This document shows positions 30,954 through 53,174 of a stretch of DNA of 53,849 nucleotides, piece after piece (positions within the stretch are counted from its first letter, which is position 1; every line of letters begins with the position of its first letter). The translations under genes were made by a program, and so were the position numbers. Source of the DNA: a virus. Its lineage: Duplodnaviria; Caudoviricetes. The notes under the pieces were generated by a model. The model saw only the letters and a program-made list of their open reading frames with translations, was not told the origin of the DNA and ran no database searches. The stretch lies in the IMG/VR virus record IMGVR_UViG_3300047457_000833, positions 1-53,849 of that record. One strand, given 5' to 3'.

Positions 30954-32572
30954 ACTCCGCGCACGTCCTTGACGAACTGTTGGCACTTCCAGCCAAGCAG
31001 CGCGCTGCAGTGCTCGAGCAACTGAAACCAGCCGAACTGGCCGCTTTATCGACGCTTGCTGATCAACATCTACTTAATCCATTCGCGCGTTTTGAGGACG
31101 ACCCTGTCGGCTTCGTGGAGCACGGCCTAAACGAACGACTCTGGTCACGCCAACGAGAAATCCTCGAATCCGTCCGCGACAATAAACGCACCGCCGTCCC
31201 TGCGTCACACGCCAATGGCAAATCCCATCTCGCGGCTCGAGCCATCGCATGGTGGATTAGCGTCCACCCTGTAGGCACAGCGATGGCGGTCACAACCGCC
31301 ACCACGTTCCGTCAGGTGCGTGCTGTTCTCTGGTCACACGTCCGCCGCGTCCATCAAAGACACGGACTGATCGGCCACACAACCCAAATCGAGTGGCGCA
31401 TCGACAACGAACTGGTCGCCTACGGCTTCTCCCCTCGAGACACCGATGAAACCGCCGTTCAAGGAATCCACGCACCGCACCTGCTCGTCGTCGTCGACGA
31501 GGCAGGCGGCATCTCAAACGTCCTCGGCAACGCCCTCGAATCAATTATGACTGGAGGCCACACCCGTCTCCTCGCTATCGGCAACCCACCAACAGACGTC
31601 GAGGACTCATGGTTCGAGCGCGCCTGCCACAGCGATCTCTGGACAACCATCCCGATCTCCGTCTACGACACACCGAACTTCACAGGCGAGGACGCAGGAA
31701 CATGCCTCTCCTGCCCACCTGAAGTTGCGCCACACGACATCAAAACACACCTCGTCGACGAATCATGGGTCAACGACGTGCTTGCTGAATTCGGCGAAAC
31801 ATCCGCCTTTGTCGAAGCCCGTGTCCACGCACGATTCCCACGCTCAGCCCCAAACAAGGTGCTACCCCTCTCATGGATCGAAGCCGCCGCCGACAACGAC
31901 GACCCCGTCCAGTCAAACGAAATCAGGCTCGGCGTCGACATCGCCGCCGATGGAGGGGATGAATTCGTTATCGCTCGAGCAGACGGCATGATCGTCACGA
32001 TCCGCCACAAATCGTCAGGTTCCGCCAATCAGAACGCTGTCGATGTCGCAGGCGTCGTGCTGAACCATATTCGTGAAGCCGAACGAGACCGCCTCGAGCG
32101 ACGCATCAACCAGCCAGTGCGCGTCAAAATCGATACCATCGGCGTCGGATGGGGTGTCGTGAGCATCCTGCAACGCTGGAAAGACGAGCAGATGCACGAC
32201 AGTCTGGTGATCCCCGTCAACGTGGCCGAACGAGCCGCCGAAGCCGCCAAGTTCGCAAACCAGCGCGCAGAAATGTGGTGGAACATGCGCACGCTTGTGC
32301 AAGCCCACCAGACACAGTCAGGTGTCCCTCAGATCGACCTGAAACTCGATCTTGACCGTCGCACCATTGCCCAGTTGTCTGCACCGCAATACAAATCAGA
32401 CTCGTCGGGTCGCATCAAAATCGAGTCAAAGGTCGACATGAAGCGGCGTGGAACATCATCGCCTGACCGTGCTGAAGCCGTCTTGCTGGCCCTCTACGAG
32501 CCACCAAACTCAGGAATCAACCCTGTGGTCGCACCAATCGTGCTCGACCAGTCGAACCCGTTTAGTTTCTAG
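30950..32572 (+). CDS. terL: Terminase large subunit
   Basis: SHANGKS Walker A, VVVDEAG Walker B, IGNP, GVDIA, IDTIGVG, SPDRAEA. Confidence 0.92.
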   Translation: MNSAHVLDELLALPAKQRAAVLEQLKPAELAALSTLADQHLLNPFARFEDDPVGFVEHGLNERLWSRQREILESVRDNKRTAVPASHANGKSHLAARAIAWWISVHPVGTAMAVTTATTFRQVRAVLWSHVRRVHQRHGLIGHTTQIEWRIDNELVAYGFSPRDTDETAVQGIHAPHLLVVVDEAGGISNVLGNALESIMTGGHTRLLAIGNPPTDVEDSWFERACHSDLWTTIPISVYDTPNFTGEDAGTCLSCPPEVAPHDIKTHLVDESWVNDVLAEFGETSAFVEARVHARFPRSAPNKVLPLSWIEAAADNDDPVQSNEIRLGVDIAADGGDEFVIARADGMIVTIRHKSSGSANQNAVDVAGVVLNHIREAERDRLERRINQPVRVKIDTIGVGWGVVSILQRWKDEQMHDSLVIPVNVAERAAEAAKFANQRAEMWWNMRTLVQAHQTQSGVPQIDLKLDLDRRTIAQLSAPQYKSDSSGRIKIESKVDMKRRGTSSPDRAEAVLLALYEPPNSGINPVVAPIVLDQSNPFSF

Positions 32573-33549
32573 AACTTCTCTTTGCCGATACCGAACTCGT
32601 CGGTGAACGCGTTCGCCACCTGCAACGCTTCCGAGATCGTCATGTCGACACGCACGACTTTGACGTTAAGGTCGCCCAGACCGTCCTTCGAGTCTGCGCC
32701 GACTGCGGCAGCCCAACGGTGATGGCCGTCAATCACATAATTGTCTTTTGACACGTAGATCGTGCCTGAGTCCCACTTCTTGGAGTCCATGATGCCTGCG
32801 ACCTTGTCGCTCTTCAGTTCGGCCTGCGACGCTTTGAGGCTGGCAGCAGGAACCTTTTCTTCGGTTACTTTCACGCCTTCGCCTTTGAGGAACTTGAGGA
32901 ACGCTGGCCCTGCGTCAACCTGACCCTTGTCGTCGGCGATCTTCGCCGCTTCGCTGCCTTCGCGTGCTGTTCCCGACAACTGTGGCATCTCAGCGCGAGG
33001 AAGTGGCTTGCCGTCCGCGTCGGCGAGTGACTGACCGCAGAACACGTTCGTGCCTTTCACTGACACGTTGCAAAGGTTGATGCGCACCTTCTCGCCGCGC
33101 TCCTTCGCTTCATTGACCATTTTGTGTAGTTCTTTGAGAAGCGTGTTCACTTGCTTCTCGTCCTCGAGTTCAACGACCTCACCCTTCGCCATCCGTTTGA
33201 TCGCCTCTTCGACCGTCTTGACGCGGATCGGCTCAGGCCGCTTCACAAGCATCGCCTTTGCTGATCGTTTGCCCGACTTCAAATCACGCACGATGCCCGA
33301 CGCCTGCGACTCGGTTCCAACACCTGAGGCGTCAACCCACTGATTCCCTCTAAATGGATGACCTTCGTAGTCGCCCTTGCGCAAGGCCTGCGCCTTCAAC
33401 ATCGCGGAAGCAAGCGCGCGGCGTGCTGAAACTGACGAACCCTCGACACCTTTGCGCTCGATCTCTTTGCGAACGATTCCCCATGTCGGGTCGTCAAGCG
33501 TCGAGTACGGTCGCAGCGAATCAACAATTCTTAGTTCGTGTTCAAACAC
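32569..33549 (-). CDS. GHPFRGNQW-tagged protein with C-terminal ParB/Srx-like domain
   Basis: KGDYEGHPFRGNQWVDASG near aa 58; LKASQAE...IYVSKDNYVIDGHHRWAA. Confidence 0.8.
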   Translation of the reverse strand: MFEHELRIVDSLRPYSTLDDPTWGIVRKEIERKGVEGSSVSARRALASAMLKAQALRKGDYEGHPFRGNQWVDASGVGTESQASGIVRDLKSGKRSAKAMLVKRPEPIRVKTVEEAIKRMAKGEVVELEDEKQVNTLLKELHKMVNEAKERGEKVRINLCNVSVKGTNVFCGQSLADADGKPLPRAEMPQLSGTAREGSEAAKIADDKGQVDAGPAFLKFLKGEGVKVTEEKVPAASLKASQAELKSDKVAGIMDSKKWDSGTIYVSKDNYVIDGHHRWAAAVGADSKDGLGDLNVKVVRVDMTISEALQVANAFTDEFGIGKEKF

Positions 33550-33618
33550 GCCCCAGAGTGTAACGCATCAACTAGGTGCGGTGGATGAGGCGAGGGGTGG
33601 CCCCATCCACCGCATGAT

Positions 33619-33885
33619 CTAGATGGTTTGCTGATCGCTCGAGCGTCGAAGGCTGCGCATCCTGCGCACGAACTCGTCGCGCGCGGTCTCGGACGGCAGA
33701 GGCCTGCTCACGTTTTGCAGAAGCCAGAACGACAAGCCGATCAACCCGATGAACGCAGGGATGGATGGAGCCTTGTCGGTTCCTGCTCCCTCAAGTCCGC
33801 CTCCGCACCACAGCGCACCGAAGAAGCAGGCGGCCAGCACCTTGATTTTGGCTTGACGCCACTTGCGATGGTTGACGACTCTCAC
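33619..33885 (-). CDS. Two-TM membrane protein
   Basis: Two hydrophobic segments; GAGGAGG RBS; overlaps the upstream stop. Confidence 0.55.
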   Translation of the reverse strand: MRVVNHRKWRQAKIKVLAACFFGALWCGGGLEGAGTDKAPSIPAFIGLIGLSFWLLQNVSRPLPSETARDEFVRRMRSLRRSSDQQTI

Positions 33886-34565
33886 GAGTGCACCTCCTCA
33901 CGCTGGTCGGCTGCCCTGTCGGCGTTCGGGTCGCGCACCTCGAAGCGTGCTGATCCGATCCTGCGGAACCTGTCTGGGCGTTCGTTGACCTGCCTGCGGA
34001 TGAGCGCAGCGTTGATGCCCAACGATTCGGCCAGTTCGCTCACTTTGAATTCGGCGTACAGGTTGGCGTCCGCCCACACGTGCAACGCTTCCGTTCCGTC
34101 GAGAGGGTATTCGCTCAACTTGTCGGGTCGGTAGTCGTGGTAGGCCTCGCGCATCGGTTCGCCTCCCCAGACCGCAGCCGAGCCGTCGCGGTTCCATTTG
34201 ATGAACCTGTATTTCGCCTTCGGCTGGCTTCGATGGTAAAGCGTCTGCCCTTCCTGCCAGTGGGTGGGTGTCGGCTTGTCGTCGTGGACGGCTGCGACGA
34301 ACTGCGGAGCCTCGACGATGGCTTTGACCTGCTCGAGTGCCTCCTTGACGGCTTCTGGGCTTGGCCCTCGCCTCTCTGCTGATCCTTCGTCTCGAGCCTG
34401 AATCTTGGCGTCGAGCCGTCCCGAGGCGAGCCTCGCTTCGTGTCGCATGGCAGCGCGTCGCGCCACCGAGCCGTTCGCGTAGTGCATGGCCTCAGCGACG
34501 GCAGCCCATGTCTGGCCTGCCTCGTGCGCCTCCCACGCCTGCCTGTCTGTGTCCAATGTGCTCAT
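33882..34565 (-). CDS. HTH-containing hypothetical protein
   Basis: AAGGAG RBS before ATG 34565; N-terminal TWAAVAEAMHYANGSVARRA and C-terminal VSELAESLGI HTH-like segments. Confidence 0.65.
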   Translation of the reverse strand: MSTLDTDRQAWEAHEAGQTWAAVAEAMHYANGSVARRAAMRHEARLASGRLDAKIQARDEGSAERRGPSPEAVKEALEQVKAIVEAPQFVAAVHDDKPTPTHWQEGQTLYHRSQPKAKYRFIKWNRDGSAAVWGGEPMREAYHDYRPDKLSEYPLDGTEALHVWADANLYAEFKVSELAESLGINAALIRRQVNERPDRFRRIGSARFEVRDPNADRAADQREEVHS

Positions 34566-34592
34566 GGGTCTCCTTCCCCGTAGGTAGGAACG

Positions 34593-34621
34593 ACAATAGG
34601 ACACAACTAAACCCGAGTCAA
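34593..34621 (-). promoter_or_regulatory. Putative leftward promoter
   Basis: On minus strand TTGACT-17 bp-TATTGT, ~28 nt upstream of ATG 34565. Confidence 0.55.
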
Positions 34622-34671
34622 GCACCGAAAGACCGCGAAAAGACGCCATCTCACGGCACTCCTACCCTAAG

Positions 34672-34929: not shown

Positions 34930-34933
34930 ATCC

Positions 34934-36256: not shown

Positions 36257-36515
36257 CGACCTGCAACCACTCGACATCGTCAAAGTTGTGTGGGAGGACG
36301 CCCACAACCTAGAGGATGGATGGAAAACCCTTGCTGATCTCACCGAAGAAGCGATCTCGTGCCGCATCGAGACCGTTGGCTTCTGGTTGATGCAAACGAA
36401 CGCGTTCGCGGTTCTCTGCTCCGATGTCGACCGTTCAAGTGAGCCAGTACACTTCCACACGGTGCTCACCATCCCGTTGCACTGCATCATCGAAATTGAG
36501 CGACTAAATGGCTAA
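36234..36515 (+). CDS. Hypothetical phage protein
   Basis: VKVVWEDAH...GW...TVGF...IPLHCI; GGAG RBS. Confidence 0.6.
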   Translation: MGIHATVNDLQPLDIVKVVWEDAHNLEDGWKTLADLTEEAISCRIETVGFWLMQTNAFAVLCSDVDRSSEPVHFHTVLTIPLHCIIEIERLNG

Positions 36516-37926
36516 AACAGACGGCTACGACTTTCAGGAGATCGGCTCCTCAGGACTCAAACGAGTCGCTGGTTTCATTGACGACGAAATCGTAAATTCG
36601 TTACGCGGCCTACAAGGCGCGAAAACCTATCGTGAGATGGCCGACAACGATCCCGTCATCGGCGCGATGCTTTACGCCATCGAGCGACTCATCATCCAAA
36701 TTGACTGGCGTGTCGAGCCATTCAGGGACGAAAACGACGAGACGACGAAGAAAGACGAAGAGATCGCCCAATTCGTTGAATCATGCCTGTACGACATGTC
36801 GGACTCATGGGAATCCACCCTCTCAAACCTCCTCACATTCCTCACCTACGGGTACGCATACTGCGAAATCGTCTACAAACGCCGCCTCGGACGCGACCAA
36901 GACGACCCGACGAAACGCTCCCAATTCGACGACGGACGGATCGGCTGGCGCAAGATCGCGCTCCGCGCCCAAGAAACCACATGGGAGTGGATGCTCGACG
37001 AAAAAGGCGGCATTCAAGGCCTCAAGCAGTTAGACCCATCAGTCGGGCCACTCGTAGAAATCCCCATTGAGAAGGCTCTGCTGTTCCGCGCCTCCACCGC
37101 CCGAAACAACCCCGAAGGACGCAGCATCCTCCGCAACGCATACCGCGCATGGCGATTCAAAAAGACCATCGAGGAAATCGAAGCCATCGGCATGGAACGC
37201 GACCTCGCAGGTATGCCCGTCGCCTATGTCCCTCCGTCAATGTTGTCGTCTGCCGCCACAAACGCCGAAGTTTCGGCCCGTTCCGCTATCGAGAACCTTG
37301 TGCGCGGCATCAAACGAAACGAGAACGAAGGAATCCTGTTCCCTCTCGCCTACGATTCCGAGGGCCGTCAAACCTACAAACTGGAACTGCTGAACGCTGG
37401 CGGCAACCGCCAATTCGACACCGACAAAATCATCACGCGCTACGACCAGCGCATCGCAATGACCGTGCTCGCCGACTTCATCCTGCTCGGCCACGCCAAC
37501 GTCGGATCGTTCGCGCTCGGCGCATCCAAAATCGATCTGTTCACGACCGCTATCGGCCAGATCGCACAGTCAATTGCTGAAACCTTCAACCAACACGCGC
37601 TCCCACGCCTCCTCAAACTGAACGGCATGGACACATCTCGAGCACCCGAACTGACGTTCGGCGAAATCACTCACGTCGACCTTGCACTGCTCGCCGACTT
37701 CATCCAGAAGGCGTCCGCAAGTGGCGCACTCATCATCGATCAGGGCATGGACGAGTACCTGCGCCTCATCTCGGGTCTCCCAGAGCGCGATCAAGAGTCT
37801 GCTGAAGGCGTGCCCCAAATGCCGAACAACGCCGCTTCTCAGCCACCTGCACCTCAACCTGCCGCCAAGCCAGAACCCAAACCTGAAGCCGATGCGCAGA
37901 CCGAAACACCGCCACAGCCGCAGTAA
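36508..37926 (+). CDS. Portal protein (Mu gp29/DUF935-like)
   Basis: EIGSSGL, YREMADNDP, NPEGRSILRNAYRAW, ERDLAGMP, GSFALG. Confidence 0.88.
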   Translation: MAKTDGYDFQEIGSSGLKRVAGFIDDEIVNSLRGLQGAKTYREMADNDPVIGAMLYAIERLIIQIDWRVEPFRDENDETTKKDEEIAQFVESCLYDMSDSWESTLSNLLTFLTYGYAYCEIVYKRRLGRDQDDPTKRSQFDDGRIGWRKIALRAQETTWEWMLDEKGGIQGLKQLDPSVGPLVEIPIEKALLFRASTARNNPEGRSILRNAYRAWRFKKTIEEIEAIGMERDLAGMPVAYVPPSMLSSAATNAEVSARSAIENLVRGIKRNENEGILFPLAYDSEGRQTYKLELLNAGGNRQFDTDKIITRYDQRIAMTVLADFILLGHANVGSFALGASKIDLFTTAIGQIAQSIAETFNQHALPRLLKLNGMDTSRAPELTFGEITHVDLALLADFIQKASASGALIIDQGMDEYLRLISGLPERDQESAEGVPQMPNNAASQPPAPQPAAKPEPKPEADAQTETPPQPQ

Positions 37927-38881
37927 CCACAGGCATCAACGCCGACCAGTCGCCAAGCAAGACTTCCGCGACGGCGAATTCGCGTCAGACCTCGAAGCCA
38001 TCTTCGCGCGCGAACTGTTGAACGCCATCGCCAAACTGCGCCGATCCGTCACATCCGCAGAAGTTGAGGCGGCCATTCGCCGATCCGTCGCCGACGCCGT
38101 GCGCGCCCTCGACGCCGCGTTCTCCGAGGTTGATCTCACAAACATCGTGAACTCGATGACAAAAGAAATCATCCGAGCAGGCCTCGAGCAAACCCCAGAA
38201 CTCGCGGCTGGAGGCATCAACATCCGCTTCGATGTGTCCGACCCACGCGCCATCCAATGGGCACAGAACAGGGCAGGTCTGCTGATCCGCAACATCACAG
38301 ACGAAGTCCGTCTCAAAGTGAGCGACGTCACCCAACGCCTCCTCACAGGCGACATCTCGCTACGAGAAGCACGCAACGAGATTTCACGCACAGTCGGCCT
38401 CCACGACCGATGGCAGAAAGCCGTCGACAACTCCTACGAGAAAACCCTCGAGCAACTCCTCGAGGCTGGCATCGACATCGACGAAGCCGAAACACTCGCA
38501 CAGGAAGCCGCCGACAACTACGCGCAACGCCTGCTGAAAACCCGAGCATCAAACATCGCTCGAACCGAAATGTCGACTGCCATGAATCAAGGCCGCTACC
38601 TGCACTGGCAGCAACTCGCCGAAGCAGGCGTCATTGACTCCGTTCGCTCAGTAAAAGAGTGGAGAACCGCACCCGAGTTCGTGTCATCAAAGACCGATGT
38701 TTGCCCGATTTGTGAGCCAATGAACGGCATTCAGGCTCCGATGTGGGCAGAGTTCCCAGAGGTTGGTGTGGTGATGCCTCCAGCCCACCCGAACTGTCGC
38801 TGCCGAGCAGTTCTTATCGTGGAACCTATCGCAGATGTCATTGATTATGTGACGTCGATGCGCGAGCAACTTGGCTATTAG
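37892..38881 (+). CDS. MuF (SPP1 gp7-like) head morphogenesis protein
   Basis: RASNIARTE, KEWRTA, CPIC, PPAHPNCRC; follows portal; start uncertain. Confidence 0.88.
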   Translation: MRRPKHRHSRSNHRHQRRPVAKQDFRDGEFASDLEAIFARELLNAIAKLRRSVTSAEVEAAIRRSVADAVRALDAAFSEVDLTNIVNSMTKEIIRAGLEQTPELAAGGINIRFDVSDPRAIQWAQNRAGLLIRNITDEVRLKVSDVTQRLLTGDISLREARNEISRTVGLHDRWQKAVDNSYEKTLEQLLEAGIDIDEAETLAQEAADNYAQRLLKTRASNIARTEMSTAMNQGRYLHWQQLAEAGVIDSVRSVKEWRTAPEFVSSKTDVCPICEPMNGIQAPMWAEFPEVGVVMPPAHPNCRCRAVLIVEPIADVIDYVTSMREQLGY

Positions 38882-38890
38882 ACTGCACGC

Positions 38891-39070
38891 ATGGCCGACA
38901 CTCTGATCGCTACGCGCGACAACGACAAACTTTACTGCGAAGGCACAGCGACCCGTCAAGACGGCGTAACCGTGTGGTACGGCTACATCATCGATGAGAA
39001 CGGCGGCAAAATCCCTGTGCCGAACATCGAGGTGCTACTCGGACACGGCTATTGGGACGAAATAGTCTGA
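38891..39070 (+). CDS. 59-aa hypothetical protein (absent from the ORF track)
   Basis: MADTLIATRDNDKLYCEGTATRQDGVTVWYGYIIDENGGKIPVPNIEVLLGHGYWDEIV fills the MuF-polyprotein gap. Confidence 0.6.
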   Translation: MADTLIATRDNDKLYCEGTATRQDGVTVWYGYIIDENGGKIPVPNIEVLLGHGYWDEIV

Positions 39071-39084: not shown

Positions 39085-42000
39085 GTGCCGTACCGCGTAG
39101 AACGCCGAGGGTCTTGCCCACCAGACCGCCCATTTGCAGTTGTTCTCGAGTCGTCAGGGGAGACGGTCGCCTGCCACGCGACACGCGCTGGTGCGGAGCG
39201 TCAAATCGCCGCCATCTACGCCTCTGAGCACGATTTGGAGAAGGAGCAGCCCACGTCGTCGGGTGTGCATGTTGACACGATCATGGGTGAGGAAGAAAAG
39301 CGTCGTCGCCTGCTGAAATTCGCGCCAGTGGCCGTGATCAAAGGAGACTATGTCGGTCATCCATTCAGAGGCAACCAATGGACGGACGCGTCTGGAGTCT
39401 CAAGGCAGCCAGCCGAATCTATGCGCGATATGAGTCGCGCAGGTCAATCATTGAACCCGACCGACGATCCTCTCGTTGCTGAAACAGAAGGCCGCCCGTT
39501 TGAGGGCTTCCTTGATTTGTCTCCAGAAACTCAAGCGATGCTTGATGCTCGCGATGCGTACTTCATTCGAGTGCGCGAAGTTCGTGACGAAGCGAAACGC
39601 ATCGTTGGTGAAAAAGAAGCAAAGGCATTCACAACCCCTGACGCACTGTTTGACGAGGCACAACGCATCGATCCGTCGTTCGCAGAGACACGGAAAGACG
39701 CGGTGTACACAGGCCCAAACGTCTACAAGATCGTTGACAAAATCAAAACCGATATGTTGCTCGCGTACGGAGCGAAACCGCTTCCTGAGGGCGAAACCGC
39801 GCCGACTCTCTATTATGCTGCTTTCACACGCGAAGAGTCGGGTCGCCTTACGTCCGAACAACGCACCATCGATCCTAAAGTAGACGTCACCCCGTTGCGC
39901 GAACGCGGTATGTCGGATCAACAAATAGGCGAACTGGTGCATGCCGTTGAAGTGAAAGCAAACCGTTTGCTTGACGGCCCCGAAGTCCGTTCCGCACAGT
40001 TCGGGCAGTCAGTTCCCGATCAGATCGCCGCAGAACGCAAATTGATCCCCGTGCTCGAGGAAGAACTCAAGAACGCTCGAGTGAGCGTCACAGTCACTCC
40101 ACGAATCCTGTCAAACATCCTCGCCGATGAACGGTTCAAGACGCAGTTTGAGACAGGGAAGTCAAGAGGATATAACTCAACGCAGGCCCGTCAAGACGAA
40201 GAACTAGCACGGTTCGGCTACCCCACACAGATGCCAGCCGACAAACGACCTGTTTACGGGATGATCGAGGTTGGTGGCCTGCGCACCCCGAGCGAACGCG
40301 GAAACCTCCAATATGGCAATGTGCTGGTGGTGCTGAAACCAGAAGTTGCCGACCGCACCACGTTCTCCGCAGATGATTCTCTCAGCAATTACCGTCCAAG
40401 CGCACCGCTTCGTGAACCGAATACGCGCGGCATTTTGTCGGCCTTCGTGGAGAACACTCACACGGCAGACGAGATTCGGTCAGGCGAAATGTATCTTGAG
40501 GCTCAAGTGCACGGTGGAGTCAAGTTGTCCGATATTGGGATGGTCATCTTCGAGTCTGGCGTCCAAATCGAGAACCGTAGCGGAGACAAAGTCAAGACGG
40601 CGACCGCGCCGAGCGCAGCCCTGCTGAAACGACTCGAGAAGGCTGGCATTCCGTACCAGATCGTGACGTCAGGCGCAGACATTAAGCCTGTCGAAAAAGC
40701 AGTCGGCTTTGACCCGACGCTACTCATCAAAGGCGATTATGTCGGCCACCCGTTTCGCGGCAACCAGTGGACAGACGCGTCAGGAGTGTCTCGTCGGCAA
40801 GCCATGTCGGGTGCTGATCGCTCGAGTGGTATCGCCAACTTGCAGGCTGTAGACACCGTTGAGGAGGCGCGTGCCACAGGCCGCCCACTCAAGATTCTGC
40901 AACCCGAGCACTATCCACCACAGGTCAAAGCAGCGTTAGCGGCCCATCGACAGGCCCAAGACGCGATCAACGCGCTACACGAAGAGATTGTAGGACAACC
41001 CGAAACCGAAGAAGCCACTAAACGCTTTTATGCTGATCGACGCGTACAAGTCGCGGAACTTGCACTTCAGTTAGCACTAGATGAAGCCAGAGTGCAACTC
41101 ACTACCGAACTTGCAAAGAAATATGGATTCACAGTTGAACAAAACCCAGAAGCACCCTATGAACGCATTCCATACGAGAACGTTTGGCGTGATCCCGATG
41201 GCCGTCTCAAGCGCGAAGAAGCATATTTTTACCCATCGAAGTTTGCGGAAGGATATCGCTGGACTGCCGCACCGTTAACACTGCTTAACCCAGATGGCTC
41301 TTACCGTCTTGTTTATCAGGGCGAAAACAAAGAACAAAAGTTGGGCTACGAATCGTTCTACGGGATTCCTATCGAGTCCTTGCGCACAGGGAAACCACCT
41401 TTTAGTTCATACGACGCTTCGGGCAATCCTGATCAACCACAACAAGACCAGAAGGCTGTTGATGCAGCGCGACAAATATTAATTAAAGAGGCCAAAGACC
41501 TCGGTATCGATTTGCCTGAAACCACTCAACCGCCACGCCTATCCGCCAAAAACCTTAAAGGAAGCCTGTCTGACGACGACATAGGTGTGCTTGGAAGCCA
41601 CATTTTCCAAACGGGTATGCGAGCGTTTCTTGGGGAAACTAAAGAAATCGATACGACGTTGTCTTGGACTGACCCAAAGGGCGACGTCACGGCGACCCTC
41701 ATTGCGAGGCAGGGCCGATTAGTGACAGACGACGCTCCGCTTTCGGTGACTGTTCCAGCGAACAAGGTTGGAGCGATTCTCAAGGATGGCCGCCTAAAAA
41801 GCCAGTTTGAGACAGGCAGATCGGGTGGCAAGAACGATCCCGAGATTCGTGCCGATTGGGAGGCCGCCATGTTCGGCTATCCGCGTGGCATGAATCCCGA
41901 GCAGAGGCCGATTTACGGGATGGTTGAAACAGGTGGCCCAAAGCCGTCCTCGACGCGAGGCAATGAGCAGTATGGCACGGTCACGCTTGTGCTGAAAGAT

Positions 42001-44779: not shown

Positions 44780-45736
44780 GTGCTGAACCTTGATCCGACA
44801 CCGTTGGCAGCCGACTGGATGCGTGTCGTCGCGTTCAACGCAGAGTTCGGGCCAATCAACACGCTGGATGAATTTATCGACAAGATGGGGATCAGTCGCT
44901 CGTCGGCATTGCGTCCACAGTTAGCGCAGTACGCGTCGATGGCGTGGCTTCATTTGCTGCCGTACCCTGTGCAGCAGGCGATCAAGGAGGCGGCGAGAGT
45001 CTCGAAGGCTGTGCCGATGTTTGGGCCGTCCGTGCTGATCAAAGGCGATTATGTTGGCCACCCATTTAGAGGCAACCAATGGACAGATTCATCGGGTGTA
45101 AGCCGTAGCGGTCAGGGGTCTGGTGCGCGCCCGAGCGACAAAACGCTGCGCACCATCGCGTTTGAGATGGACTCAAAGATGGAAGTTCTAAAAGATGAAG
45201 GCGCGCGTCTCGTCAAGTTCGCTGGCGGCATCGAATTCGTAGACAGGCAGGCCTACATCGACCAACTTCCGCTTGTGTCGCGTGCAACACCGAATCATCA
45301 GGTGATCGCCAGTGGCGTGACAATGACAGAGGAAGCCCTGAATGACGAAGCCGATGTCGCTGTCATAGAGGATCGTGACGGACAGGTTTGTGGCGCAATT
45401 TCAATGAGCAGCAAGCCGTACACTTCTCAGGAGTTGTCGGAGTTTCTTGGTGGGGTCGACCCGAACTCAACTTGGATCGAGATGCGTAGCGCAGGCTCGA
45501 CAATGAAAGTTGATGGTGTCGGCTCGGGCTTGTTCGCGGCAGCGATTTCTAAGGCTGCCGAATCGGGGTCTGGCCTGTATTTGTCGCCGCTTGACGAGAG
45601 TGCCAGACAGTTCTGGGCTTCTAAAGGTTTCAGGGAGGCGGAACGCGTCGGTGGTAGCGAAGGCACCTACCAGTATCTGGACGCCGAATCGGTGCGAATC
45701 ATCGCCAACAACCTCGAGGAAGGGTGGGGCGCGTGA
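44780..45736 (+). CDS. Tagged protein with GNAT acetyltransferase-like domain
   Basis: Tag at 45041; DGVGSGLF...LYLSPLDESARQFWASKGF. Confidence 0.75.
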   Translation: MLNLDPTPLAADWMRVVAFNAEFGPINTLDEFIDKMGISRSSALRPQLAQYASMAWLHLLPYPVQQAIKEAARVSKAVPMFGPSVLIKGDYVGHPFRGNQWTDSSGVSRSGQGSGARPSDKTLRTIAFEMDSKMEVLKDEGARLVKFAGGIEFVDRQAYIDQLPLVSRATPNHQVIASGVTMTEEALNDEADVAVIEDRDGQVCGAISMSSKPYTSQELSEFLGGVDPNSTWIEMRSAGSTMKVDGVGSGLFAAAISKAAESGSGLYLSPLDESARQFWASKGFREAERVGGSEGTYQYLDAESVRIIANNLEEGWGA

Positions 45737-47865
45737 TTCCAGCCTTCGATCTATTTGATGTCGCTTTAACGGACGAGGATGTGCTGAAAGGCGACTACGT
45801 AGGTCATCCGTTTAGGGGAAACCAGTGGATGGACGCGAACGGTGTCGCTCGAGGCGACGCAGGGTCATCTCCCGATCAAGACAAGCAGGCCTACGACCTG
45901 CGTCAACAGGGCAAATCTTGGGAAGAGATCGCCAAGATTCTCGGCTACGCGAACGGTGGCTCGGTGCGTCGTCTGGCGATGCGTCACGAGAAACGACTGA
46001 AGGACGGCGGTCAGGAAGTGGTGAAACCTGAACCCAAACCTGAGCCGAAGGTTAAGCCGCCGAAGGGTCGTGAACCTGAAAATTATGACGAGGCTGTTGC
46101 GCTGGCTAAATCGCTAATCAAGGCCACGTTCAACGGTGACGCCATCGCCACGCTCACTAAATTGATGGCGGATTCAGGGAAAACCTTTGATCCGAACGAT
46201 GAGGCATACAAACTGACTGATGCCGAACGCGTAATGGAGGAGAAGGTTCTAATGGTCGGGGACGCTGTGCGGATGGCGTTGGCGTTCGCTCAAGCCCAAG
46301 CAAGTGGCCTCGACCCGAAGGAAGCGGCGCGTGTCCGAGAGGAGCATGACGCGCTTAAGAATGCGTGGCAGAAACTAGTAGACGCCCGTGCGGAAGCAGA
46401 AAAAACCGCGCTGGCGGATGCCAGAAAAGCATTGACTGGATCAAAACAAGGTGCATCTTGGAATCCAACTTTCACAGTTAGCAGTTTCGCGGATCAGATA
46501 GCCGCTGCGAGAGCACTAGCCGAGCGTGACGGTCTGCTGAAACCAGACGAATCAATCCAATACATCGGTGGGAGCGTGGCGTTAGGTTTTGCTGGAGCAA
46601 AAGCATCAACAGAACTGCAAACCCTTGTGGATCAGTTAAAAGCCGACGAACCCACTGCCGATGTTAGAACTCGCGGCAAAGATCTATTCGTGCCAGTAGA
46701 CCCTCGCAGCACTACCGCGAGCCTTGTGCGCGCCGTGTACGACGCCAACAAAGACGCATTGCAGTTGATTGAGGCACTCTCGAGCGAAGTCACCGCAGGC
46801 AGAAAAACCGTTGCCGAGGTGAAACAAATCTTGTCCTCGCCCACAGCCATTGTTGACCAGATGAACCGCACCTATGTGCTTCCAGAAAACAAAGGGGAAC
46901 GAACCGACAACGATTACCGTGACACCCATGCAGGTTGGAGTGGTCGTCAAGTGTCGCTGCTGAAACCAGAAACACGACAAGAAATGCTCGTCGCCGCAGT
47001 CCAGAAAGCGGCCCAAAGTTCCAACATTGTCGACTCCATCGGTGCGGTAATGAGCCGACCGATTGGTGATCTCGTCGGCGTCAACATAGGAAAACTTGAC
47101 CCGACGATGACCTATCGGCAGGTTCAGGAACGTCAAATTGAAATCAACACTAAAATTAGAGAACAAAACGAAAAGCAAGAAGCAAGCGGAATCTCTCGCG
47201 GAACTGTCGTTAGACGCGTCCTTGAAGATGTCGGTGTCAAAATGGCCTCTCCTGACCTGTTGCGTGTCAACTTTGATCCGAAGCGCAAGGATGCTGCGGA
47301 ATTGACTGCGGCGGCACGCGAAATCTCGATGATGCTCCCTCGAGCGTTCGTGCTTGGTTCTGATTCGCTCAAACCTCAGTTCTCTGGCGGTGGCCACATG
47401 ACGGCGGAACTCAAGTTCGGTGGCGGTCGCGCCCACGCCCAGAATCTGATGGGTGGCAAATTCATCATCAAACATGAAACCATTCCTACAAACTCGGCCA
47501 GAGGCCTTACTTCGTGGAAGTCGGTGTTTCTTCACGAGACGGTGCACGGAATGGAGTACGCAAATCCCCTAATCCGCTACCTCGAATACTTGACTTGGAC
47601 TCGGCGTGGCGAAGGCGAGCCTTTGCGAACACTAAAATCGATCACAGGCGCGTCGGGGTATCAGTCTTACGAAAAGGGCAAGAAGGATGCGTGGGGAAAC
47701 GCTTACGCTGGCAAAGAATACGGTAAAAGCGGAACGTCAACGTATGAGATCATGACCACAGGAATGCAAAGCCTCTATTTTGGGGATGAGCGCGCCGACC
47801 GCGAGCATTTGAATGCGGTGCTCGGAATTTTGGCGGCGGCAAGCACACTGGCAGGCAACAAATGA
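45733..47865 (+). CDS. Tagged protein with HTH and C-terminal zincin metallopeptidase
   Basis: Tag at 45787; SWEEIAKILGYANGGSVRR; FLHETVHGME...YAGKEY...YEIMTTGMQ. Confidence 0.75.
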   Translation: MIPAFDLFDVALTDEDVLKGDYVGHPFRGNQWMDANGVARGDAGSSPDQDKQAYDLRQQGKSWEEIAKILGYANGGSVRRLAMRHEKRLKDGGQEVVKPEPKPEPKVKPPKGREPENYDEAVALAKSLIKATFNGDAIATLTKLMADSGKTFDPNDEAYKLTDAERVMEEKVLMVGDAVRMALAFAQAQASGLDPKEAARVREEHDALKNAWQKLVDARAEAEKTALADARKALTGSKQGASWNPTFTVSSFADQIAAARALAERDGLLKPDESIQYIGGSVALGFAGAKASTELQTLVDQLKADEPTADVRTRGKDLFVPVDPRSTTASLVRAVYDANKDALQLIEALSSEVTAGRKTVAEVKQILSSPTAIVDQMNRTYVLPENKGERTDNDYRDTHAGWSGRQVSLLKPETRQEMLVAAVQKAAQSSNIVDSIGAVMSRPIGDLVGVNIGKLDPTMTYRQVQERQIEINTKIREQNEKQEASGISRGTVVRRVLEDVGVKMASPDLLRVNFDPKRKDAAELTAAAREISMMLPRAFVLGSDSLKPQFSGGGHMTAELKFGGGRAHAQNLMGGKFIIKHETIPTNSARGLTSWKSVFLHETVHGMEYANPLIRYLEYLTWTRRGEGEPLRTLKSITGASGYQSYEKGKKDAWGNAYAGKEYGKSGTSTYEIMTTGMQSLYFGDERADREHLNAVLGILAAASTLAGNK

Positions 47866-48188
47866 TTCGTATAACCGCGATGTCGGGTGGTGAAACGCTG
47901 CAGGCCACCGAAATGGAGGTTGGCCTGTGGAGCGTCAGTCCTCTCGAGTTCGCAGACTTCTTTGACTCGGCCACTGTTCCGTCGAGCATCGTGGTGTTGG
48001 GTGGCACTCAAATCGTTTACCCCGACTGGCGGTCAGATGACCCGATGATTCGGCTCTACGCTGCGCAATATGTCATCCAGCGATACTTTGATTTGACGTA
48101 CGGCGAAGCACGACCCATCGAATACACGATCACAGGCATTGCTGAGCAGCCAGATACGGATGATCTGCCACCAGACACGGTGTTCTAG
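47862..48188 (+). CDS. Small acidic protein coupled to the metallopeptidase gene
   Basis: ATGA overlap; 108 aa; ends DDLPPDTVF. Confidence 0.6.
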   Translation: MIRITAMSGGETLQATEMEVGLWSVSPLEFADFFDSATVPSSIVVLGGTQIVYPDWRSDDPMIRLYAAQYVIQRYFDLTYGEARPIEYTITGIAEQPDTDDLPPDTVF

Positions 48189-48191: not shown

Positions 48192-49718
48192 GTGACCATG
48201 ATTTCTGTCGGAGACATCCTCGAGCGTCCACGCAAATCAGGCGGTGTTGAGCGCGCTCTGGTTGAGAAGGTGCGCACGTCAGGCAACGTGCTGATCAACG
48301 GCTCGCAGGTAGCCGCAACCTCCGAGAACCCTGTGGTCACAGCCAGAATCGTGGTACTGGACGGCGAGTCGGTGCTCAAGACTCGAGCCACACGCACTTT
48401 CGTGCACAAAATGCACGGCGACGACCATGAGATGGGCGTTTATACGCTTGTTCCGCGCCAGAAGGCGATGTACGAGATGTATGAGGCCATCGTCGGGCAG
48501 ATGGGCCAGTTTGATAAAAGTGTTGGTGGGAATGGTGCTCACTACGCGGACGGCACGGAGAACGTGTTCCTGTCGGAGGGGATGCAGTGCGCTAACTGCG
48601 TGTTTTACTGCGGTGGCCGAGCCTGCGAAGTTGTTGCTGGAGACATCGACCCGTTGGGCATCTGCAAACTGTGGATCATCGCTGAGCCTCTTCTCGGCCA
48701 GCAGGCTACGCCTGTGCTGATCTCTGAGCGCGAACTAGGGATTGAGAAGGCATCAAACTTCACTCCACCGCAAGCGGTGCGTGACGCCGCGCAACGGGCC
48801 GTCAAATGGATCGAGGAAGGGAAGGCTGGCGACGGCTTCACGGCGGTCGGTGCAGGCCGTGCGCGCGATCTCGCAGCAGGACGGGCAGTGTCGCTCGAGA
48901 CCGTCAAGCGGATCTCCAACTTCCTGTCGCGCCACGAAGTTGACAAGAAGGCCGAAGGCTTCAGTCAAGGGGAGAACGGCTACCCCTCGGCAGGTCGTGT
49001 CGCTTGGGATGCATGGGGAGGTGATCCTGCGAAGAGTTGGGTGAGTGGAATCCTTGCCGATGTCCAAAAGGCCGCCAAACTGAAGGAAGGCCAGTTCGTT
49101 CGCTGGAACTCGTCAGGTGGCCCTGCGCAAGGCCGCATCGAGCACGTGATGGAAGAAGGCACGCTCGGCGTCCCGAACTCAAGGTTCAAGATTAACGCGC
49201 AGCCCGACGACCCTGCGGTGCTGATCCGCATCTATCAAGAGGGTGCGGACGGATGGGTGGAAACCCCAACCCTTGTCGGTCACAAGGCGTCGACGCTTCG
49301 TCGTATCGAGCCTCTGTCAAAAGCGACACGCCTCATCAAGCAGGCCACCGAGGAACGCTTCACTCTAGCCCCTTGGTATATTCCAGAAAAATATGATGCG
49401 CAGAACGAGTGGACGGACGCGCGCGAACTTCAGAAAGCGTTGTGGGAATACGTTCAGTCTGGTGATCGCACCATCCGTTTGCAGCACAACAAGAATGTGC
49501 GCGCTGGCGAATGGGTGGAAGCAATGACGTTGCCGCACTCGTGGACGACCCCGATGACGAAAGCCAACGGCGCAACCACCGAGATCACATACCCTGCTGG
49601 AACCGTGCTTCTGGGCGTCATCTGGGACGACTGGGCGTGGGACATGGTCAAGAAAGGCGAGATCACGGGCTTCTCCATCGGTGGCTCAGCGGAACGCCTC
49701 GACCTCGAAATGCCCTAA
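48192..49718 (+). CDS. Multidomain prohead protease (C-terminal XkdF/S78-like) with HiPIP-like and DUF2945-like domains
   Basis: ERFTLAPWYIP...DAQNEW...ELQKA...LQH...VKKGEITGFSIGG; CANCVFY...C...C-LW; VRWNSSGG. Confidence 0.8.
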   Translation: MTMISVGDILERPRKSGGVERALVEKVRTSGNVLINGSQVAATSENPVVTARIVVLDGESVLKTRATRTFVHKMHGDDHEMGVYTLVPRQKAMYEMYEAIVGQMGQFDKSVGGNGAHYADGTENVFLSEGMQCANCVFYCGGRACEVVAGDIDPLGICKLWIIAEPLLGQQATPVLISERELGIEKASNFTPPQAVRDAAQRAVKWIEEGKAGDGFTAVGAGRARDLAAGRAVSLETVKRISNFLSRHEVDKKAEGFSQGENGYPSAGRVAWDAWGGDPAKSWVSGILADVQKAAKLKEGQFVRWNSSGGPAQGRIEHVMEEGTLGVPNSRFKINAQPDDPAVLIRIYQEGADGWVETPTLVGHKASTLRRIEPLSKATRLIKQATEERFTLAPWYIPEKYDAQNEWTDARELQKALWEYVQSGDRTIRLQHNKNVRAGEWVEAMTLPHSWTTPMTKANGATTEITYPAGTVLLGVIWDDWAWDMVKKGEITGFSIGGSAERLDLEMP

Positions 49719-49747
49719 AACCGCGCAACGACGCCACTAAACGGTAG

Positions 49748-49776
49748 TTGACTACGGCCCAGAAATGCCGTACCTT
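49748..49776 (+). promoter_or_regulatory. Putative promoter of an inserted (moron-like) unit
   Basis: TTGACT-17 bp-TACCTT, then GAGGAGGAG RBS and ATG 49805. Confidence 0.55.
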
Positions 49777-49804
49777 CTTCGAGACACATACGAGGAGGAG
49801 CAAG

Positions 49805-50422
49805 ATGGCTTCACGGCAGCGATACGACGAAGAACAGGTTCTACGCGGTTTGGTATCCGCTTGGATACAACTTCGATCCCAACTCACGGCCACACCGAAC
49901 GCCTGCATCCTTGCAGCCAACTTCGCTCGCCGAATCCTGCCACGCTTCTACGTCTCGACTTTCGTCCGACCTGTCGGCGTGATCGCCTTCAACCGTGAAG
50001 GATGGGAAGCGATCTGCTACGGGCAACCGTTAACGGGTGACGCGTGGAGCGTCGGATGCTCGAGCCGATTCACAACATCAGACTTCGCCTACGACGGTCA
50101 TGTGGTGATCCAAACCTCAAACTGGTATCTCGACCTGACCGCAGAAGCCTTCGAGCGACCAGAGCACAACATCGTCATGGGTGGCCCTGTGCTGATCCCA
50201 CTCGCCAAACTCGGTGTCATACCGAAGGATCATCGTCTGCACGAATTAACGCAAACGACACGCACATATTCAATCCCACTTAACACGGGCATCTACACAT
50301 TCTTTGACGAACCGAACAACCTGAAGTTCCGTTCTGCACCCGACTGGCAAGTCGACTGGCATGATTTGCGAGGCGCGGAAGCAGAACAAATCATCAACGA
50401 TCATCTGCGGAGCAACCAGTGA
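49805..50422 (+). CDS. Hypothetical protein with possible Cys-His-Asp triad
   Basis: Strong RBS; NACILA, DGHVVI, YLDLT. Confidence 0.6.
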   Translation: MASRQRYDEEQVLRGLVSAWIQLRSQLTATPNACILAANFARRILPRFYVSTFVRPVGVIAFNREGWEAICYGQPLTGDAWSVGCSSRFTTSDFAYDGHVVIQTSNWYLDLTAEAFERPEHNIVMGGPVLIPLAKLGVIPKDHRLHELTQTTRTYSIPLNTGIYTFFDEPNNLKFRSAPDWQVDWHDLRGAEAEQIINDHLRSNQ

Positions 50423-50844
50423 ACAGAACCCAACGGCGATCAAGGAAACATGCGGTGAAAGAATTTGCGGCACTCGACAACGCGCTCCAGTCCGCAGATA
50501 ACGCTGCCCGTATCTTGCTCAAAGACCCCACCAGCCCTGCTGAAAGCCGTTACACGGCGGCTTGGGCCGAGATTCCGATGTGTGACCGCAACAAGCCACT
50601 CTTGCGCATCTGTGACCGCTACAGGATCGGGATGCAGGGGATCGGGATGCGTGAAACAGGCTCGGTTCAGGCGCGCGTGTTCAAACCTCGAGCCGATTCA
50701 CGGCTGTCACGCGAACTGTGGCGTCAAGCGTCAACGGAGCGTCGCATGGCTGCCGAGGTTGACTGGGCCACAGAGTTCGTTGCGTGCCTCCGCAGGTGGG
50801 AGTTCGTCGCGTCTGCTCACTGCCGTGTCGGCGATAACGGTTGA
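50419..50844 (+). CDS. Hypothetical basic protein
   Basis: GGAG RBS, GTGA coupling, MNRTQRR start. Confidence 0.45.
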   Translation: MNRTQRRSRKHAVKEFAALDNALQSADNAARILLKDPTSPAESRYTAAWAEIPMCDRNKPLLRICDRYRIGMQGIGMRETGSVQARVFKPRADSRLSRELWRQASTERRMAAEVDWATEFVACLRRWEFVASAHCRVGDNG

Positions 50845-50857
50845 CGGGTGGGCTACT

Positions 50858-52024
50858 ATGGCGACTGAGATGAACCAAGACGCGATCTACAAGATGTTTG
50901 CGGCGTCCCCTGTCGGGAAGTCGATGTCGGCTGCTGATCTTGACGCGATGCGTCAAATGCTCGAGACGACCCCTGTCACACAGATCGGTGGCTGGTACGG
51001 GGAGCAGATTCGCAAGGCTGCCCGTCTCGCCAAAGGCGATTACGTTGGGCATCCGTTCCGAGGCAACCAATACACCGACGCATCAGGCGTGGGACGAGGC
51101 TCCTCAAGTGGGCCTTCCAGCCGTCGCAGCACCGCCGAGATTGACGCCATCAACGAGCGTCTGGCACGCACAGGCGACAAGCAGTTGATGATGGACGGGC
51201 TTCTCAGCAGTGCTCGAGCAGACGTTGACGCAGCGATGCGTGCAGGGAAAAACAACGTACCGTTGATTGACGGTCTTGCGCTGCTGGAAACCGCGAACCG
51301 TGCAGGCGTTAACACTCCAGAAGGCAAGCAGGCACTTCAACGCGCCTTCGACTGGCTCGAGAACGAGAACTATCACGGGCTTGCTGAAGGCGTCCATAAC
51401 ATCATGCAGGCCAGAGGCCCGAAGAACGGCTACATGGAATTTGAGCGGGATGCAAAAGACTTCGTGTCGTCGCAGATCGCGGAGACCGCACTCTTCGCGG
51501 AAACCGACCTGAAACGACAGATGGACGGCATCGACGGAATCATCGAGACATCAAAAGGCGCAATCGACAACGCCGACGTCAAAGCCGAAAGAAGCGAGAA
51601 TTTTGAGAGCGAGGACGCCGCGAAAGATCGCAAGGACGCATCCGATGTGACTCGCGCTGAGACGCGACTCCAACGGCACGCGAAGGAAGTCAAATCAGTC
51701 TTGGAATCCCTGATCGTATACAGTCGGAATGGGCGCACCGATTCAAACGCTGGTGATATCGAGCGCGCCTACAAGAACCTGTTCAGTAAGGCCTCTCAAC
51801 TTCAGATGCTTCGCTCTGAGATCATGCGCGATAGCGAATTTGAGCGCACCGCAAGCCGTCAAGGTTTTGCTGGCGGCAAGAGCGTCACTGGCAAGTACGG
51901 TTTGCTTCTCGGCAGCATTCGGCAGGCATTAGAGGCGATCAACGAAGTCCAGTCTGAGGTTGATAGTTCCAGCGAATCGATCCGTCAATCCGCCGAACAA
52001 ATGTACGCAGACTCGAAGGGATAA
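50858..52024 (+). CDS. Tagged helical/coiled-coil protein
   Basis: ATG 50858 after the 50844 stop; KGDYVGHPFRGNQYTDASG at 51032. Confidence 0.75.
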   Translation: MATEMNQDAIYKMFAASPVGKSMSAADLDAMRQMLETTPVTQIGGWYGEQIRKAARLAKGDYVGHPFRGNQYTDASGVGRGSSSGPSSRRSTAEIDAINERLARTGDKQLMMDGLLSSARADVDAAMRAGKNNVPLIDGLALLETANRAGVNTPEGKQALQRAFDWLENENYHGLAEGVHNIMQARGPKNGYMEFERDAKDFVSSQIAETALFAETDLKRQMDGIDGIIETSKGAIDNADVKAERSENFESEDAAKDRKDASDVTRAETRLQRHAKEVKSVLESLIVYSRNGRTDSNAGDIERAYKNLFSKASQLQMLRSEIMRDSEFERTASRQGFAGGKSVTGKYGLLLGSIRQALEAINEVQSEVDSSSESIRQSAEQMYADSKG

Positions 52025-52028
52025 TAAA

Positions 52029-53174
52029 GTGGCCGAAGTTCGCAAGTGTTCATGTGGTGAAGGTAACCAGCAGGTGCTCGACACGCTGCGCTCCACCACG
52101 CTGGCCGAGATGCCTGTGGACGAATTCAACGAGATCGTCGACGACGTCAACAAGGCTGGCGGCATCCGCAACCTGTCAGGTTTGTCTCGGGTGCTGATCG
52201 AGAAGGCGTTGAACGATTTGCGTGCAGGTGTAGAGAAGGGCGACTACGAAGGTCATCCATTCCGAGGAAATCAGTGGACTGATTCGTCAGGTACTGGACG
52301 TGGCGGCGCAGGCGGTGGGCCAAAAGGTTCTAAGAATCAACGGGCTAGATATTTTGACAGTGCACCTGACCGCCCACAGACCGCTGGTGCTAGATATTTT
52401 GACAGTGCGCCCGACCGCCCACAGGCCGCTGGTGCTAAATATATCGACATGAAAGGGAATTCTCCTCGTCGCGCTGAGAGTGTGCAACAGGAACTGAATC
52501 GCCTGTCTAGAGAAGGCCTACAAAGTCAAATCGATGAACTGAAGATGTATATCGATGACCATAAGGGAATGGCTGAAGTTCTACGCGACCTCGGCAACGA
52601 GGATGGCGCACGACAAGCAGAAGCCAACGCTGCGAAAGCAGAGAAAGAGGTGCGCGGCCTAAAAGCGGAGATCGACAGGCGTCAAAAGCGATTCGAAATG
52701 GATCAAAAAACGGAGTCCGCTAAGACAAAAGTCACCGAGGACAACATTGATTCCAAATTGAAAGGCGATGACCTAAAGCAGTTCAAAGCGCAGGTCAAGG
52801 AAGCCGAGACTGCTGTCAAAGAATTCCGTAAAACTGTCGCAGATATACAAAAGCGCGTGGCCGCCGAAGGAGTTCGTGGCGTTGCTTCTATTCTTAAAGA
52901 AGCACTCAATGAGGCTCGGACGTTTGAGAAGTTGGTGCGCGACGCCAAAGCAGCACCAACCATTCGTCAAGCGGTACGAATGACGTCGTTAGGAACAAAT
53001 GCTGGCGAAAACGCTAAGGGTGCGCTTCGAGAGGTTTTGGGGAAACTAAAGGGCGGCGAAAGCGATGCTGATACAGAAGCAATAAATGCTCTGCAAACTG
53101 CTGGCGACAAATATTTTGGTCTTTCGCCAGACCGATACAACCTTGATGATGCCTTTGATTTCATTGATAGTTGA
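52029..53174 (+). CDS. Tagged coiled-coil protein
   Basis: GTG 52029; KGDYEGHPFRGNQWTDSSG at 52236; K/E/A-rich helices. Confidence 0.75.
   Translation: MAEVRKCSCGEGNQQVLDTLRSTTLAEMPVDEFNEIVDDVNKAGGIRNLSGLSRVLIEKALNDLRAGVEKGDYEGHPFRGNQWTDSSGTGRGGAGGGPKGSKNQRARYFDSAPDRPQTAGARYFDSAPDRPQAAGAKYIDMKGNSPRRAESVQQELNRLSREGLQSQIDELKMYIDDHKGMAEVLRDLGNEDGARQAEANAAKAEKEVRGLKAEIDRRQKRFEMDQKTESAKTKVTEDNIDSKLKGDDLKQFKAQVKEAETAVKEFRKTVADIQKRVAAEGVRGVASILKEALNEARTFEKLVRDAKAAPTIRQAVRMTSLGTNAGENAKGALREVLGKLKGGESDADTEAINALQTAGDKYFGLSPDRYNLDDAFDFIDS
52344..52442 (+). repeat. 45-bp in-frame tandem repeat (about 2.2 copies)
   Basis: Units start at 52344, 52389 and 52434, encoding ARYFDSAPDRPQ[T/A]AG. Confidence 0.9.

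Follow-up and report, generated by a model that had tools for sequence, protein, structure and literature searches.

A short conserved peptide that heads putative capsid-cargo modules in tailed phages

The DNA analysed here (the window) spans all 53,849 bases of one IMG/VR virus contig, in which a peptide of about 20 residues, hereafter the tag, occurs nine times among the genes for head assembly. The first 138 bases recur at the contig end (1-138 at 53712-53849, with 2 mismatches), so that the window closes on itself and is a circularly closing phage genome; the record is classed as linear and 87% complete. The head genes follow the order large terminase, portal, MuF, cargo genes, protease, scaffold and major capsid protein (MCP). 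On the plus strand they comprise the large terminase (30950-32572), a Portal_Mu-type portal (36508-37926), an untagged MuF-like head morphogenesis protein (37682-38881; this frame overlaps the portal and the true start lies later), a cargo frame of the polyvalent, multi-domain kind with four tags (39085-44754, 1889 aa; the public gene call P0019, of 1823 aa, begins at residue 67), an untagged prohead protease fusion of 508 aa (48192-49718), two tagged, putatively helical proteins (50465-53174), a scaffold-like gene matching phrog_13547 that crosses the junction (53224-53849, continuing at 2-310) and a Phage_cap_E-like MCP (752-1702). A decoration-like protein is encoded at 329-721. In the protease fusion an XkdF-type Peptidase_S78_2 domain occupies the C-terminal residues 381-503, and the other parts are a Cys-rich N-terminus, a segment matching phrog_2859 and a Hva1_TUDOR domain (residues 300-346). 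Protease frames are likewise long, at 500-690 aa, in tag-rich relatives.

The consensus of the nine copies is K-G-D-Y-x-G-H-P-F-R-G-N-Q-[WY]-x-D-x-x-G. Copies 1 (KGDYVGHPFRGNQWTDASG; 39340-39396) and 2 (40729-40785) open modules 1 and 2 of the 1889-aa frame, both DUF3626-like, while copy 3 (42358-42414) opens a module of 170 aa with no family match and copy 4 (42943-42999) a module of 578 aa with LYRG and EDE motifs. Copy 5 (45041-45097) lies in an open reading frame (ORF) of 318 aa (44780-45736) whose payload has a GNAT fold, and copy 6 (45787-45843) in an ORF of 713 aa (45724-47865) with a helix-turn-helix-like stretch and a zincin-like HETVH motif. Copy 7 (51032-51088), a GNQY variant, stands in the frame 50465-52024, whose start is uncertain, several Met codons being present at residues 132-165. 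Copy 8 (52236-52292), in the frame 51960-53174 (404 aa), precedes a Gly-rich linker, short repeats and a coiled-coil-like payload; the repeats, two to three tandem units of about 15 residues (ARYFDSAPDRPQ.AG-like), fall at about 52330-52470, right after the tag and its Gly run. Copy 9, on the minus strand (33322-33378), belongs to an ORF of 326 aa (32569-33549) that abuts the large terminase gene and has a ParB/Srx-like C-terminus (DGHHRW); phrog_2859 is matched by this ParB-like protein as well as by the protease fusion. The codons for the Gly of GH start at 39355, 40744, 42373, 42958, 45056, 45802, 51047 and 52251 (plus strand) and 33363 (minus strand).

A first-pass annotation, made from the sequence alone, had reported nine copies with eight of them between MuF and the scaffold, and had argued that selection acts on the peptide. 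All of this was confirmed. The K codons stand exactly at the reported coordinates, eight tags lie between the end of MuF (38881) and the start of the scaffold gene (53224), around the XkdF-type protease, and the ninth adjoins the large terminase gene. When GHPFRGNQ was back-translated into a degenerate 24-nt pattern, the window gave nine matches and none of 100 dinucleotide-preserving shuffles gave any; the same nine places were recovered by a six-frame motif scan and by a protein search of the whole record. Across the nine copies, 13 of the 19 aligned codon columns are invariant and two copies agree on average at 83% of protein and 74% of DNA positions; comparing codons pair by pair (684 pairs) gave 299 synonymous and 116 non-synonymous differences, and the invariant Arg is encoded by AGA, CGC, CGA and AGG. 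Since the DNA copies differ mostly at synonymous sites, the tag is under selection at the protein level. The same figures bear on the sceptical explanation that the tag does nothing by itself, being either a boundary that recombination among modules maintains between cassettes or the neutral remnant of a linker. The free shuffling of modules among phages and positions would suit such a boundary, but the identity of the tag DNA, at 63-74% and with its synonymous drift, is too low for gene conversion, which is an unlikely source of the conservation because the copies have diverged. Moreover, eight residues are invariant across 142 tags (a set ascertained by the core pattern), and nine orthologues of the 318-aa protein share an invariant tag between leaders of differing length and payloads that are 34-60% identical, so that the tags of orthologues are far more conserved than their payloads. 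We regard a functionless boundary as hardly credible.

No similarity was found among the payloads, or between a payload and the scaffold, beyond the tag itself. The payload labels of the first-pass annotation fared unevenly. Modules 1 and 2 of the 1889-aa frame are DUF3626 (E 2e-10 and 2e-13), and the payload of the 318-aa protein has a confident predicted fold that matches GNAT acetyltransferases, including tRNA-acetylating toxins. The 713-aa protein is a candidate zincin by its HETVH motif and PHROG matches, the ParB/Srx label of the minus-strand protein draws on weak matches, and the ADP-ribosyltransferase (ART) label of module 4, proposed from the LYRG and EDE motifs, found no support among Pfam profiles. 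The Salmonella effector SopF is presumably an ADP-ribosyltransferase. A link between the DUF3626 family and SopF is made in the available part of one report (PMC6682159). The 1889-aa frame places two or more effector-type domains on one chain, two DUF3626 modules and two further modules. This arrangement recalls the phage-type polyvalent proteins (Iyer, Burroughs, Anand, de Souza and Aravind 2017, PMC5512222, in the sections available) and the MuF polymorphic toxins with portal- and MuF-fused effectors (Jamet et al. 2017, PMC5576092), which share with the tag carriers their large size, their many domains, their place among the portal, MuF and terminase genes and the prediction that they are packaged and injected. 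In the window the domains found were limited to DUF3626, the GNAT fold and the HExxH motif; its proteins gave no match to MPTase or ART-PolyVal, and its MuF frame (37682-38881) ends without a tag or toxin, so that no MuF-toxin fusion of the kind described by Jamet et al. is present there.

The tag is widespread beyond this genome. When IMG/VR was scanned for exact matches to a 27-nt pattern, of which about 0.1 would be expected by chance according to our estimate, the scan returned 117 stretches on 76 contigs with 152 distinct tags, often several per frame. The first-pass annotation had proposed a profile search of viral metagenomes with a tabulation of gene neighbourhoods and domains. Profile A1, built from 142 tags and with a core that is invariant by ascertainment, matched 1,890 clusters at E<=1e-3 among 1.84 billion protein representatives, of which 412 reach E<=1e-10 and 55 reach E<=1e-30; the tag is a general element. 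Up to 9 tags occur in one protein and up to 25 in one genome. Thirty of the 76 contigs, picked for length (22-178 kb, one contig of 24 kb being left out), were searched in full and all carry tags, with 25 each in G005 and G014, 22 in G009, 21 in G017 and 20 in G022. Among 185,579 species genomes there were 51 pattern matches, of which 17 are genuine, including prophages of Verrucomicrobiota and Pseudomonadota; the other 34, core-only matches in short frames and about as numerous as the chance estimate, were dropped. No tag was found in 72,556 plasmids, which gave 7 matches, the number expected by chance; of the two inspected, one lay in a pentapeptide-repeat protein and the other on the wrong strand of a regulator gene, and both were rejected.

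Cultured phages are nearly devoid of it. When 50,697 GenBank phage records were searched by tblastn with two window tags and one GHEFHGNQW-type tag, only Xanthomonas phage Rb1 was matched; the multi-tag protein P0012 gave no match in GenBank phage records, and the window DNA has no near match among cultured phage records. The tagged protein of Rb1 (L126; PQ569993.1, 51801-55466) has the architecture InPase-DarA_N-tag and is annotated as 'internal head protein'. The protein has one tag only, preceded by an acidic run; nearby genes encode a DarA_N protein, a reprolysin-like peptidase and a giant helicase-like protein, and a literature search found no paper on this phage. As to earlier records of the motif, a word-indexed homologue search with the tag region gave 11 candidates only; phrog_12491 of PHROGs v4, a family without functional annotation, aligns to the tag with positions 15-26 of its 49 (E 3e-6); Pfam and NCBIfam hold no model for it; and among solved structures the tag profile had chance matches (Kaede, E 1.6) and the payload queries nothing useful. 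Literature searches for GHPFRGNQ, related motif strings and the topic found no paper on the motif. The strings 'GNQ' and 'GHP' occur nowhere in the available part of the PMC5512222 text, supplements aside, nor do 'motif', 'linker', 'cleavage' or 'junction' in the text of PMC5576092, supplements aside. The earlier statement that no functional description of the motif is known thus agrees with the literature searched, and as far as that literature shows, this inter-module peptide has not been described before.

In general form the motif reads h-x-K-G-D-h-x-G-H-x-F-[RH]-G-N-Q-[WY]-T-x-G-x-G (h, hydrophobic), over about 20 residues. In 491 non-redundant tags selected with the pattern GH.F[RH]GNQ, sequence information is limited to positions -7 to +15, positions +10 to +15 being rich in Gly. 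The commonest cores are GHPFRGNQ[WY] and GHEFHGNQ[WY], and several variants may stand within one protein. In the best 150 of the 1,890 cluster representatives, which hold 549 tags, the first tag begins at a median residue of 57 and most tags are internal, neighbouring tags are spaced by a median of 216 residues, and the distance from the last tag to the C-terminus has a median of 264 residues, a 5th percentile of 92 and a minimum of 14. Because the first tag comes early and the last lies far from the C-terminus, the tag almost always stands at the head and not at the end of a module, which is about 100-450 residues long. The leader that precedes the first tag may have as few as six residues and still keep h-x-[KL], and two viral ORFs open directly with M-G-D. 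One relative (G017; L179:161-520) encodes a paralogue that has the N-terminal leader of the small tagged proteins (NPF..D.L.PSW..VGVLK) and no tag, and in another locus (L114) an in-frame stop lies three residues upstream of the tag, where a homologue (L119) has Gln; this stop is a candidate for read-through, an error or a broken gene. AlphaFold2 models of the 318-aa protein have a predicted local distance difference test (pLDDT) score below 50 at residues 59-114 and 80-93 in the GNAT payload, and the tag modelled alone scores 65 with no secondary structure. These models suggest a short linear motif, for which folding would require a bound partner. A metal site was considered and judged unlikely, because the second His is not conserved.

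The company that the tag keeps in relatives includes head proteins and effectors. Among 74 of the 112 distinct tag-bearing viral ORFs, the longer ones, a domain scan found MuF in 7, portal in 2 (one of them Phage_portal-tag-Zeta toxin), XkdF protease in 3, ART families in 8 and DUF3626 in 6, together with Zeta toxin, 2H/Acb1-like, PI3/4-kinase-like, DUF6321, DUF5872, DUF7178 and DUF6496 domains; 37 had no Pfam match. Seventy of the best 150 representatives, the shortest ones of at least 350 residues, were scanned likewise. Forty had no Pfam match, and the 30 that had one carry ART families, MuF (6), XkdF protease (3), Topoisom_I (4), Acb1, InPase and Zeta toxin, in some with MuF or the protease at the C-terminal end of the chain. 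MuF-tag fusions are thus found in 7 of 74 viral ORFs and 6 of 70 representatives, and MuF is fused to effectors in systems of the Jamet type, whereas the MuF of the window is a separate untagged gene. Six of the 17 bacterial-genome matches are Portal_Mu-tag fusions in Verrucomicrobiota, three of which end in PBECR1, 2 or 3, and those in Pseudomonadota carry DarA_N, DarA_C, ddrB-ParB, PBECR1 or LPD3. Domain families shared between the tag relatives and the polyvalent proteins are accordingly ART-PolyVal, PBECR1-3, DarA, ddrB-ParB, InPase, LPD3 and Zeta toxin. The tag-rich relative G005 has a terminase, portal and MCP candidate that differ from those of the window and a tag-bearing portal-MuF fusion, and its 25 tags fill the stretch between the terminase and portal-MuF fusion and the MCP candidate; the head-gene neighbourhood of the cargo has the same layout in both genomes.

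This gene and domain context makes it likely that the tagged modules are capsid-internal cargo of the polyvalent type, and the tag probably marks proteins carried inside the capsid. The interpretation that we favour, with a probability of roughly 0.45, is that the tag is a header on capsid-internal cargo modules that acts in the procapsid as a docking signal, a processing signal or both. The header would be recognised during procapsid assembly by a conserved head component, perhaps the capsid shell on its inner face, the scaffold or core, or the portal, and this recognition would hold every module within the shell. The chain would then be cut just upstream of the header (at a weak h-x-K|G) or in the Gly-rich linker, which would let separate modules leave with the DNA. 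So conceived, the header would be a combined docking and processing mark and not a pure address. The data support a pure address only in part, because tags also occur on portal, MuF and protease domains, which reach the procapsid by themselves, and a pure cleavage site is insufficient because nearly all conservation lies downstream of the likely cut and single modules with short leaders are also tagged; the combined role is favoured because neither alone explains the distribution. The earlier proposal of a portable address that loads effectors into the head therefore survives in part: a portable header of unrelated payloads, selected as protein, and carriers of the kind predicted to be packaged in the head are borne out, the address role itself is not. 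Its alternative, tethering to packaged DNA, found no support here.

Known head-loading systems offer partial parallels. The capsid-targeting sequence of T4 is poorly conserved and is removed at L/I-x-E. Like the tag, it is short; it lies near the N-terminus of unrelated head-internal proteins (the internal proteins and Alt), where the first tag of a protein also tends to lie although most tags are internal, and it is tied to processing by the prohead protease, as proposed for the tag; the tag, with about 20 residues, eight of them invariant, its repetition within polyproteins and its presence in many phage lineages, is set apart by this description. No L/I-x-E consensus is present at the tag, where h-x-K stands upstream of G-D. 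Encapsulin cargo-loading peptides are disordered, sit on flexible linkers of unrelated cargo enzymes and serve a shell of the HK97 fold, and they are usually C-terminal and single. The tag resembles them in its predicted disorder (residues 59-114 of the 318-aa protein) and in the Gly-rich positions +10 to +15, and differs in heading modules and being repeated. Processing of head proteins in the giant phages SPN3US and phiKZ uses a short cleavage motif, in contrast to the long conserved header described here. Head maturation in these phages involves prohead-protease cleavage of many head-internal proteins (PMC7411985, PMC10052503). The nearest structural precedent is that of the P1 Dar proteins, head-internal anti-defence proteins that are anchored on the inside of the capsid and leave it together with the DNA; DarA-Hdf pairs attach to its inner surface through helical bundles, in which they differ from the tag (PMC12810830, sections available). 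DarA_N and DarA_C domains recur in tag carriers of Pseudomonadota and in phage Rb1. Tagged cargo also fits the account of viral NAD/ADPr systems given by the Iyer group in the accessible part of PMC9503650.

Several observations weigh against a docking and processing header. Tags that follow portal, MuF or protease domains need no address, and in large relatives some small tagged proteins with conserved leaders adjoin ParB-like, helicase and small-terminase genes and not the portal-MCP stretch; tag-bearing genes lie within, or adjoin, the head and packaging module, many of them between terminase or portal and MCP, and these small proteins stand outside the head module in the strict sense. The ParB-like gene that they adjoin resembles the ParB_N gene of the window. 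None of the MCP, protease and MuF families occurs in every carrier. The XkdF protease is present in 16 of 30 tag records and in four of the five that are at least 90% complete, the MCP type of the window in 15 of 30 and again four of those five, and MuF in 11 of 31 and one of those five; many tag records are fragments, so that absences are weak evidence. A single universal partner was therefore not identified by co-occurrence, each of the three being missing from many carriers, and none of the cultured phages with a related MCP (<=54% identity) was matched by the tag searches. Of the 15 records with an MCP match, seven have 60-68% identity and three about 32%, and in five the match is split, with 60-68% identity per block. 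In these five (G014, G009, G018, G008 and G030; for example G014:C1:73624-74685), blocks 1-138 and 150-315 lie in one frame of 360 aa (300 aa in G030), which implies an insertion relative to the window MCP. An invariant motif without a conserved phage partner could instead have DNA, a host factor or the motif itself as its target. The upstream cut site is weak too, Lys occupying position -5 in 61% of tags. Outside tags, [VLI]-x-K-[GSA] occurs 23 times in the head-internal proteins of the window against 13.9 expected from shuffles (P ~0.012, for one motif chosen after looking), and elsewhere in the genome its count is 13, with 15.9 expected; the excess in the head-internal proteins is no more than suggestive of a cut just upstream of the header.

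The arrangement of domains invites another proposal, in which the header is a recognition element for cutting polyproteins into modules and loading depends on other signals or anchors. Cutting would fall to the prohead protease, to a zincin carried in the cargo or to the chain itself, for instance by Asn-driven cleavage at N-Q, a chemistry that occurs in some virus capsid maturation cuts. Tags do part morphogenetic modules and effectors in any order, as in portal-tag-MuF-tag of G005, in P0108 (Acb1 to XkdF protease) and in P0053 and P0125 (effectors, then a C-terminal MuF), and long multi-domain protease frames are frequent in tag-rich relatives. The shortest leaders still keep h-x-[KL] before G-D, and since the initial Met is commonly removed, the ORFs that start with M-G-D would yield the very product of a K|G cut. 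Prohead-protease sites of T4 and phiKZ need far fewer than eight fixed residues. The eight invariant residues of the tag far exceed such needs, and nearly all conserved residues are C-terminal of the putative cut, unlike those of ordinary protease sites. Single-module proteins with leaders of 6-24 residues (45 of 149) would gain little by being cut, a disordered 20-mer is unlikely to cleave itself, and the XkdF protease is missing from 14 of 30 records and was not found in phage Rb1. In favour of a cut, peptidase processing of polyvalent proteins is a prediction of Iyer et al. 2017 (PMC5512222, sections available). Taken together, a joint that serves processing alone appears unlikely.

The constancy of the core across differing MCP candidates, portals and proteases, and in prophages of both Verrucomicrobiota and Pseudomonadota, would also fit a partner that is not specific to the phage. 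The header might then act at or after ejection, by binding packaged DNA or a conserved host factor, or by aiding unfolding, tail passage and refolding. Positions +2 and +4 vary freely inside one protein, and P1 DarA-Hdf contact DNA as well as the capsid (PMC12810830, sections available), both of which agree with such a role. However, with hosts in distant phyla, a host partner would have to be very conserved, and binding to DNA cannot load a procapsid before packaging. Conjugative polyvalent proteins of plasmids encounter the same hosts, and the absence of tags from the 72,556 plasmids counts against such a role as well, although this argument is weak, because cultured phages are nearly untagged too (1 of 50,697). 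We consider a role confined to ejection quite improbable. A bolder extension of the docking and processing header would make it a universal portable cargo-loading code for tailed-phage capsids, shared across unrelated MCP, portal and protease lineages, that docks any protein at a conserved feature of the procapsid interior and releases it on maturation, as a phage counterpart of the encapsulin peptides; this is probably too broad.

How phages choose the proteins that are carried in the head and injected is known in detail for very few models, such as T4, P1 and the giant phages, and the tag is a sharply defined, widespread peptide at the boundaries of cargo modules. If it is a loading or release signal, it would allow the injected effectors of metagenomic phages to be predicted by a rule based on sequence, among them anti-defence enzymes with Acb1-like, ART, DarA-like and nuclease domains. 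It would also show where modules begin in giant polyvalent proteins, which often belong to no assigned family, and offer a short tag for trial loading of chosen proteins into phage capsids.

Some further genes of the window complete the picture of the locus. The cargo block also holds three untagged ORFs of 59, 108 and 224 aa (38891-39070, 47862-48188 and 49748-50422), which have no family matches. Just upstream of a small-terminase-like gene (29795-30241) lie a C5 cytosine methylase (24374-25387) and then the ParB_N gene and an N6/N4 methylase (27090-29791).

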